From a virus (Duplodnaviria > Caudoviricetes), in the IMG/VR virus record IMGVR_UViG_3300015158_000001, positions 1 through 62,354 of that record: a DNA stretch of 62,354 nucleotides; one strand, written 5' to 3'. A model generated the notes under the pieces. It made no database searches. It was not told where the DNA came from and worked only from the letters and a program-made list of their open reading frames with translations. Position numbers and translations under genes: made by a program. Numbering within the stretch: position 1 is the first letter of the stretch; every line of letters starts with the position of its first letter. Below, piece by piece: positions 1-829 of this stretch.

Positions 1-73
1 ACGCGACGTTCGCGTAGCGCGAGCCGGCGCGGCCGTCGCTCACCCAGGACCCGCCGAAGACGGAGGCGCGCGG
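1..73 (-). repeat. DGR variable region (VR), 5' portion
   Basis: Matches TR 61783-61855 with 4 mismatches, all at TR adenines: ATG>GTG, AAC>AGC, AAC>CGC. Confidence 0.97.
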
Positions 74-829
74 TTCGTCCGGGTCGCCGTCGTGACCCCA
101 TGCCCACAGGTTCCCGGTCGCCTGCATCAGCCCGAACCGGCTGGTGCGCGCGACATCAAGCCCGGTGATGCGCGGGTCCTTGCGGCTGGCGGTCTTCTCG
201 GTGACACCGAAGGCCGCGGCGAAAAACTCCTCCACGCCGAGCAGGCCCTTGCCATGGTGCTTCATCACCGCGACGGCGGTCTCATAGTTGAAGCGACCGT
301 AACGGCCGCCATCCGGTTTCTGTGGCGGCGAGTCGCCATCCGCGATCGTGACGCCGAAGAGGCTGGTGCAATCCAGGTGATCGGCGCCGGTGAGGTAGAT
401 GTCGCACCAGAATTTGCCGGATGGCGCGTCGATCAGCGTCATGCCGCGCGGGTCCGGGCAGGCGGGGCGGAAGTTGCGGTCCCATACCGAGCACGGATTG
501 ATTGCCGGTACGTCGTCGCCACCGGCGCGGGCGACCGCGTTTCCACCAGGCGCGAAGTGGAAGCCACCGAGGATGTCGTCGCCCTGTGGCATGCCTCTCG
601 TGCGGTTCAAGGCGAAGCTTCCGTCCGCGGCGGTGACGACATAGTCGGCGCCGGGGATGAGGTCGATGCCGGGCACCGGCGTGTCGCCGCTGAAGAATAT
701 ACCGGCGAACGTCGTTCCAGCCTTGATCGCGATCGAGCTCGAGCCCGTCACCAGCAGCGCCGGAGAGCTCGGGTCAGTCTTGATCAGGACAGGTGACGCC
801 GCACTCTGTACGCTGATGGGCTTATTCAT
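1..829 (-). CDS. mtd: DGR target protein, Mtd-like C-type-lectin fold; 5' part, continuing across the junction to 62291 (about 299 aa in total)
   Basis: Not in the ORF track because it runs off the end. Manual translation from ATG 829: MNKPISVQ...LIKTDPSSPALLVTGSSSIAIKAGT...GGFHFAPGGNA...WDRNFRPACPDPRGMTL...FWCDIYL...TSRFGLMQATGNLWAWG...PRASVFGGSW, which resembles BPP-1 Mtd. 829+7+64=900 nt, in frame. Confidence 0.9.
   Translation of the reverse strand, partial: MNKPISVQSAASPVLIKTDPSSPALLVTGSSSIAIKAGTTFAGIFFSGDTPVPGIDLIPGADYVVTAADGSFALNRTRGMPQGDDILGGFHFAPGGNAVARAGGDDVPAINPCSVWDRNFRPACPDPRGMTLIDAPSGKFWCDIYLTGADHLDCTSLFGVTIADGDSPPQKPDGGRYGRFNYETAVAVMKHHGKGLLGVEEFFAAAFGVTEKTASRKDPRITGLDVARTSRFGLMQATGNLWAWGHDGDPDEPRASVFGGSWVSDGRAGSRYANVA

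Follow-up and report, generated by a model that had tools for sequence, protein, structure and literature searches.

An Mtd homologue without an N-terminal beta-prism, encoded by a retroelement outside the tail module of a soil siphophage, and a possible off-virion role for its clade

Among described diversity-generating retroelements (DGRs), the closest to the one reported here is that of phage BPP-1 (mtd-avd-TR-brt; PDB 1yu0-1yu4), whose target Mtd, a trimer on the tail fibres that determines tropism, has 381 residues and an N-terminal beta-prism as its tail-attachment part, and in which mtd comes after the tail-fibre gene bbp9 at the close of the structural operon and before the lysis genes. 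Homology to Mtd is routinely read as 'phage tail protein' or as tropism switching (PMC5758913, PMC8144416). In this work, we describe a DGR in the window, by which we mean the whole 62,354-nucleotide (nt) stretch of IMG/VR virus record IMGVR_UViG_3300015158_000001 (Duplodnaviria; Caudoviricetes), which according to its PHROG and Pfam map is a complete-looking temperate siphophage of ~62.4 kb from soil. The order of its cassette and the kinds of its cis-elements are those of BPP-1, with a variable repeat (VR) at the 3' end of a lectin-fold domain, adenine-specific variation, a hairpin loop of the GRNA type, and identities of 54% for the reverse transcriptase (RT), 43% for Avd and ~37-38% for the target over both of its retained domains. 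It differs in that the target has 299 residues and no Mtd_N domain, in that it lies beside recombination genes in a presumed early run on the strand opposite to the structural genes, and in that a homologue of Bbp9 is absent from the window. An earlier sequence-only reading of this stretch had proposed that the target is a hypervariable ligand-binding protein outside the virion; the anatomy of the locus and of the target we now regard as nearly certain, and work off the virion is the best-supported reading of the target's function, to which we would give a probability of about one half.

A non-structural DGR target in a phage already has a precedent in Quimbyvirus, the second target of which is described in Benler 2021 (PMC8008677) as lying away from the structural module, on the other strand and in a methyltransferase-rich setting, and is considered by those authors to be non-structural and conflict-related. 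The window target is likewise distal and on the opposite strand, and the relatives of the window are likewise methyltransferase-rich. However, Quimbyvirus ('Quimbyviridae', gut, Bacteroidetes hosts) keeps its first target by the tail-fibre genes, whereas here every target of the cassette stands outside the tail module; its second target is not reported there as an Mtd homologue, whereas ours is clearly one and has the beta-sandwich; and in the clade of the window the loss of the N-terminus tracks location. Some cellular DGR targets, which putatively act in conflict or as antigen sensors (PMC10907252, PMC10053308), share the idea of intracellular recognition through a diversified lectin fold, but are described there as usually large and multidomain with signalling or effector domains, unlike the window target, which is phage-encoded, small and without an effector domain. 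Long Mtd-like proteins (those of metagenomes, S-CBS3, P12026 and L023) have the mtd_2nd and lectin-fold region in common with it at 39-54% identity, and differ in their N-terminal extensions, in their location in structural modules where the context could be seen, and in falling outside the 19-row tree group of the window. What is new here is the Mtd-family identity, the clade-wide rule linking length to location, and that no target is left in the tail module. A literature search found neither the short-Mtd clade nor the length-location link described, although the supplementary tables of DGR surveys, which were outside that search, may list such loci; of the 12 papers listed when DGRs were looked for in Bradyrhizobium, Rhodopseudomonas, Nitrobacter and Afipia, none uses the term 'diversity-generating'. 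That a short-form clade without the attachment part is never with tail genes, while extended homologues are, matters for the assumption that Mtd means tail. If the off-virion reading is true, phage DGRs would gain a second use, evolving intracellular recognition in conflicts, and many DGR targets annotated by homology would have been given the wrong function; the system lends itself to experiment, since prophages of cultured bacteria have short-form cassettes.

The retroelement and its target protein

The locus is an intact DGR of the BPP-1 type, composed of target, post-VR hairpin, avd, template repeat (TR) and RT (Table 1). All five mismatches between TR and VR fall at TR adenines (119 aligned nt, the other 7 nt of the VR being missing from the record). 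The window holds no second VR-like copy, which agrees with the earlier statement that neither the fibre protein at 28479 nor the tail-tip protein at 41221 has a visible VR. The hairpin after the stop codon starts 18 nt past the end of the TR/VR homology and agrees with the rule for phage DGR hairpins given in PMC3240598 (stem of 7-10 bp, loop GRNA, at a distance of 4-34 bp to the VR); when the 61-nt stretch is folded for minimum free energy, a larger and different hairpin is preferred (z -2.58).

The target gene runs across the two ends of the record. Alignment of TR with VR and a contig of run X1 both place 7 nt between window positions 1 and 62354 that are absent from the record. X1, a soil metagenome and possibly the source sample, is the sole run found with window DNA, and none of the runs listed is recorded as RNA; the comparison was with contigs of X1, and in the bridging one a piece of the TR is followed by 507 letters and then by window 2-1146, and these 507 letters correspond exactly to 499 window letters, the 7 missing ones and position 1. 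As this contig bridges the ends with the 7 nt in place, the record is a circular permutation of a continuous molecule, in which the gene reads in frame at 299 codons. The sequence-only reading had placed the target at 1-829, which gives the start correctly and the extent too short, given that only 276 of the 299 codons are there and the remainder lies in 62354-62291 together with the 7 missing nt. Assemblies are reported to break at DGR variable repeats (PMC8008677), which accounts for a record that ends inside the VR. The motif GGAG stands 10 nt upstream of the target ATG. A longer start at TTG 1081 was considered and discarded, since the added stretch lies over the upstream gene in a different frame and is rich in Arg, Pro and Ser, like out-of-frame high-GC sequence, and the homologues begin at the ATG.

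In a HMMER search against PDB sequences the target matches the Mtd variants at E 3e-43 to 5e-42, and in the best of these matches (1yu4, E 3.1e-43) its residues 9-274 align to Mtd 51-357. Judged by these alignments, it is a true Mtd homologue of 299 residues that keeps the beta-sandwich and the VR-bearing C-type-lectin domain. It also matches phrog_11262 ('tail protein') at 1.4e-68 over profile positions 68-370 of 393, and Pfam mtd_2nd, below the cut-off, at residues 28-117 (E 6.1e-4). In place of the N-terminal beta-prism, which McMahon is said to have placed in 2005 at about Mtd residues 1-48, there are ~8 unconserved residues. No match to Mtd_N (PF18454) was found in a six-frame scan of the window even at E 10, and a split Mtd with a separately encoded beta-prism is ruled out, as Mtd_N is unmatched anywhere in the window. 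An AlphaFold2 monomer model (28-row alignment) has a mean predicted local distance difference test score (pLDDT) of 56.9 and is confident only at residues 12-95, the beta-sandwich, the lectin domain being poor; the top five Foldseek matches of that model are Mtd variants. Hydropathy gives no hydrophobic N-terminal segment (maximum of the Kyte-Doolittle 15-residue mean 1.36; no signal-peptide predictor was run). The earlier claims of an absent beta-prism and of no evident signal peptide are both upheld by these results.

Length and location across the family

Relatives of the cassette were collected from viral contigs (20 loci from 23 pattern matches) and from genome contigs (8 loci from 62 pattern matches); after near-identical loci were collapsed (L018 and L029 = L017, L027 = L010, L028 = L015) and L023 was kept apart, 23 distinct short-form loci were left. 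All 23 stand outside structural modules and among DNA-metabolism genes. The related truncated mtd-avd-RT cassettes that the sequence-only reading had suggested looking for are thus at hand, and the anatomy it described, without beta-prism and outside the structural module, is a property of the clade and not peculiar to this phage. The named hosts are Rhodopseudomonas, Nitrobacter, Bradyrhizobium, Afipia, Rhodoplanes and uncultured Alphaproteobacteria, those of the close relatives being of Nitrobacteraceae type, and short-form cassettes are also carried by prophages of cultured, harmless bacteria from soil, Bradyrhizobium sp. YR681 (locus L028) being one example. Target, avd and RT occur together in 18 of the 20 viral loci, L014 being without avd and RT and L019 without RT. 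Relatives at 50-67% identity have 287-316 residues, of which the leading 8-20 are unconserved; exceptions to this length are over-extended open reading frame (ORF) calls (L014, L022) and one fusion (L008). The scaffold of the short-form targets has 50 invariant columns, and the targets are open and full-length in nearly all loci. Adenine specificity is seen here as well, with 350 of 382 TR/VR mismatches at TR adenines in the 31 targets that have a TR match. Pfam finds mtd_2nd in 26 of 28 short forms (E<=0.01) and Mtd_N in none of them.

Two or three short-Mtd target paralogues are present in L007, L009, L012, L013, L019, L021, L024 and L025, in tandem or some kb apart, and all of them match one TR with adenine-specific differences. 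A further variant is the ORF of 391-401 residues at L008:4057-5262 on the minus strand (= P0001, the closest 50%-cluster representative to the window target), in which a short Mtd-like protein is joined in frame to a helix-turn-helix (HTH) of XRE type at the place where the 3' half of the VR would be expected; it may be a genuine fusion of lectin and HTH, or else have arisen by deletion.

The genes that flank the short-form cassettes encode ParB-methyltransferase fusions, methyltransferases, DUF5131 and GapR-like proteins, SNF2-type and other helicases, primases and replication initiators. Our flank scan covered 136 ORFs of at least 170 residues within 7 kb of the cassette in the 23 loci (140 before the removal of four long ORFs that were already annotated), and the 25 most frequent of its 157 PHROG families are of DNA-handling kinds plus integrase, with no tail or head family among these 25. 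Phrog_359 is found in 17 of the 136 ORFs, and phrog_15877, 116 and 363 are likewise methyltransferase or counter-defence neighbours. The neighbours in the window itself are recombination and helicase genes, its methyltransferase being farther off. Upstream neighbours vary between loci; L022 has the order of the window (XRE, Sak4, NinB, target, avd, RT, helicase). The upstream gene, the helicase and DUF5131 were considered as conserved partners of the target and rejected, none of them being constant across the loci. In most relatives the cassette, though distal, reads in the same direction as the late genes and stands a few kb before those for packaging, with TerL and portal some kb downstream on the same strand.

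The homologues that do lie in structural modules have an N-terminal extension in all four cases examined. Three come from cultured phages, namely BPP-1 Mtd itself (~42 extra residues), whose gene follows the fibre gene bbp9; the 386-residue homologue of S-CBS3 (~56 extra), between head and tail genes; and the 494-residue homologue of P12026 (~182-186 extra), after a tail-fibre gene. The fourth is that of the distant viral locus L023 (39% identity, ~55-78 extra, mtd_2nd starting at residue 79), two genes after the tape-measure gene. A full HMMER search returned 526 homologues at E<=1e-3, and among the best 150 of these, 117 of which were informative, the part that precedes the shared region is below 30 residues in 25, 30-99 in 13 and at least 100 in 79, the median in this last group being 228. 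Ten long forms all have a strong mtd_2nd match deep inside the protein, and two of the ten have collagen-like or CBM_5_12-like repeats below the Pfam cut-offs. The mtd_2nd match is weak in the short clade (6e-4 for the window, 1.2e-9 at best among 28) in comparison with 1e-16 to 1e-28 in long forms, despite an overall identity of 45-54% (A1 vs P0020-P0100). By these profile scores the beta-sandwich has diverged in the clade that has no docking domain.

In a tree that took 81 of the 117 informative representatives (3 intermediate and 33 long forms were omitted for size), the window falls in a 19-row group with a Shimodaira-Hasegawa-like (SH-like) support of 97, made up of 15 short, 1 intermediate and 3 long forms, and BPP-1 Mtd and 43 long forms fall in the other part of the tree. 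Two of the three 'long' members of this group are lengthened by run-on from neighbouring genes for a ParB-like protein and a DNA methyltransferase, not by fibre domains; the third, P0002, has an unexplained N-terminus of 134 residues. The target belongs to a supported clade of short forms; the members come from phages and prophages of Alphaproteobacteria that resemble Nitrobacteraceae, and none of them lies in a tail module.

The virion proteins with which a short form might associate are equally varied. The tail-tip protein of the window has a homologue in two of five carrier records; in the other three BLAST finds nothing similar to the structural proteins of the window, and their fibre or tip families are different ones (phrog_11439, phrog_4271/290 and phrog_31/469). 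None of the BPP-1 fibre and tail proteins Bbp9, 10, 13, 14 and 23 is matched in the window. By these comparisons the tail modules of the carriers are unrelated, and no docking partner is shared among them.

A putative off-virion function and its alternatives

We favour the reading in which the target works off the virion because the loss of the N-terminus co-varies with a location outside the tail, because the tail modules are diverse, and because the surroundings are those of conflict genes. Run-on and fusion ORFs, which couple short forms to ParB-like, methyltransferase or XRE-HTH sequence, fit a cytoplasmic setting. It is reasonable to postulate that the target would be co-transcribed with the leftward early genes, translated in the cytoplasm and, by homology, assembled into an Mtd-like oligomer, and that the DGR would rewrite up to 15 codons of the lectin-fold binding face. 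The product would be an evolvable binder in conflicts between phage and host or between phages, rather than an adsorption protein, and its opponents might be a variable host defence protein or a protein of a rival phage. More tentatively, the whole clade of temperate alphaproteobacterial phages may have converted a tropism cassette of the BPP-1 type to an off-virion system, in which a docking-less Mtd is made together with early and anti-restriction genes and is evolved again and again by the DGR, as an antibody-like receptor for counter-defence or exclusion, to bind changing opponents inside the cell; this fuller account we hold with less confidence than the off-virion location as such.

Several considerations weigh against an off-virion target. 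The closest of its homologues to have been characterised binds receptors as a part of the virion, the PHROGs label of its family is 'tail protein', and to our knowledge tropism switching is the sole benefit demonstrated for a phage DGR. Proteins of early operons can last until assembly, and the position of the gene therefore leaves incorporation possible; late read-through is conceivable in the relatives, where the cassette is co-directional with the packaging genes and upstream of them. The target has no effector domain. With regard to the samples, the long-form contexts are four only, the tree is a FastTree of 83 rows with a midpoint root, the gene calls of the relatives are our own ORF picks based on GC content at third codon positions (GC3), and the PHROG flank tally is of 25 families out of 157.

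It may be, then, that the target is still a receptor-binding or adhesion protein of the virion, which joins tail or head fibres through its beta-sandwich or through an unrecognised adaptor, and that the cassette is a mobile insert in a tolerant non-structural region. We consider this doubtful, if a serious contender. The 38% identity to Mtd extends over both retained domains, and phrog_11262 bears a tail label, but the docking domain is absent, the leading 8-20 residues are unconserved, and the Pfam match of the beta-sandwich is far weaker in 28 short forms than in long ones. That flanks vary would suit a cassette moving as a unit, and those of relatives are co-directional with late genes; yet 23 of 23 short-form loci are outside structural modules while 4 of 4 homologues inside them are extended, the carriers hold at least four unrelated tail-tip or fibre sets that such a protein would have to join, and Bbp9 is unmatched in the window. 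Precedent is on the side of the virion, in that the experimentally studied phage DGR targets are all receptor-binding proteins according to PMC5758913 and PMC8144416, and other short DGR targets consisting only of a C-type lectin are also assumed to be receptor-binding (PMC10743442).

Two further explanations seem to us much less probable than either an off-virion or a virion-bound target. A soluble lectin, freed at lysis or from lysogens, could bind surface or matrix glycans and so mask receptors on debris or act in superinfection; release by lysis requires no signal peptide, but a freely diffusing protein would offer DGR selection a weak link between genotype and phenotype, and the neighbours are intracellular DNA-handling genes. 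We give slightly less credence still to a selfish passenger, that is, a cassette kept by retrohoming or horizontal transfer with a target no longer useful to the phage. The varied insertion contexts are what it would lead one to expect, as are degenerate or fused copies (L008 fused to XRE, L014 without avd and RT, L019 without RT), but nearly all loci have an open, full-length target of 287-316 residues, 50 columns of the scaffold are invariant, VR differences are adenine-specific in 31 targets, and target paralogues are kept in many phages.

Genomic surroundings and minor features

On the minus strand the order is XRE, Sak4-like, NinB-like, upstream gene, target, avd, TR, RT, helicase, HNH and integrase, with gaps of at most 207 nt except for one of 332 nt that contains the TR. 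The XRE gene matches HTH_3 (1.9e-12), and the Sak4-like gene AAA_24 (1.2e-9) and phrog_124 (1.3e-7). The packed run upstream of the target is presumed, from gene order, to be an early left operon that reads into it; scans for promoters and terminators around the cassette and the early run gave counts at chance level and were not used. The structural genes are all on the plus strand, with TerL and the end of the tail-tip gene ~17.4 and ~17.7 kb from the ends of the target. With respect to the sequence-only reading, these data bear out its placement of all structural genes on the plus strand and at least 17 kb away, and Pfam and PHROG agree with the gene run it had listed apart from 'xis' (56958-57140), which has no family match. 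Its description of the run as early and 'PL-directed' is read from the gene order only, the promoter and terminator scans being at chance level. The target does follow a minus-strand gene by 4 nt as had been said, but that gene is 'ASCH-like' only weakly, its ASCH match being sub-threshold (E 0.062, 14.4 bits vs a cut-off of 21.2).

Table 1. Principal features of the window and their coordinates
Feature	Coordinates	Strand	Remarks
IMG/VR record	1..62354		62,354 bp; classed 'linear'; CheckV completeness 100
DGR target, codons 1-276 plus one base	1..829	-	ATG 829-827; open through record start
Target 3' end, last 20 codons and stop	62291..62354	-	stop TAG 62293-62291
VR, 5' part	1..73	-	73 nt; 4 mismatches to TR, all at TR adenines
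VR, 3' part	62309..62354	-	46 nt; 1 mismatch, at TR adenine; TR/VR homology ends at 62309
Inverted repeat	62273..62290	-	GC-rich; directly after stop codon; 7-bp stem, 4-nt loop GGCA
avd	61858..62256	-	Pfam bAvd 4.9e-26, above cut-off; identity is to BPP-1 Avd
TR	61730..61855	-	126 nt; 21 adenines; 6 AAC codons
DGR reverse transcriptase	60509..61525	-	RVT_1 1e-16; BPP-1 Brt match over residues 1-316, E 7.7e-102
RecD/Dda-like superfamily 1 (SF1) helicase	59305..60516	-	AAA_30 7.8e-27; UvrD_C_2 3.1e-17; overlaps RT stop by 8 nt
Tyrosine integrase	55533..56750	-	phrog_1 4.8e-49; same strand as cassette and downstream of it
Second minus-strand block	far end	-	integrase, HNH, helicase, RT, avd
Upstream gene	834..1352	-	phrog_8581 6.7e-8; stop 836-834, 4 nt before target start
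Packed leftward run of small genes	1352..7258	-	includes NinB-like, Sak4-like, XRE
Minus-strand run	~8169 down to 1	-	cI-like, small genes, XRE, Sak4-like, NinB-like (PHROG/Pfam)
Plus-strand run, first part		+	replication genes, methyltransferase 16616-17602, TerL 18204, portal, capsid region
Plus-strand run, later part		+	fibre-like protein 28479, tape measure 36934, tail-tip protein 41221-44625, endolysin 45349

A gap of ~500 nt (7259-7776), gene-poor and lower in GC, separates the cI-like gene from the leftward run; it contains a terminator-like hairpin (7405-7386), and the leftward early promoter, which a consensus scan did not resolve, is likely to lie there. At the other side of the cassette, the RecD/Dda-like helicase that follows the RT is also found after the RT in L022 (L022:7943-9073) and in no other locus, and may be an occasional DGR accessory or a mere neighbour. 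A tRNA scan for an attachment site found no tRNA gene in the window. Beyond the integrase, 52681-54561 (minus strand) encodes a 626-residue P-loop ATPase with weak HerA_C, TrwB and terminase-like matches, and 50721-52367 (plus strand) a 548-residue phrog_13260 protein; the two may form an island of cargo or defence genes close to the attachment site.

Three large genes occupy 27618-32936 on the plus strand, between the capsid region and the head-tail adaptor. They encode a 260-residue phrog_8123 protein, a 546-residue fibre-like protein with a C-terminal Peptidase_S74 chaperone domain, and a 658-residue ORF without a family match, and could be head fibres or decoration proteins. Directly upstream of the methyltransferase and terminase genes, 15334-16236 (plus strand) encodes a 300-residue protein that matches phrog_513 ('transposase') at 1.5e-67.

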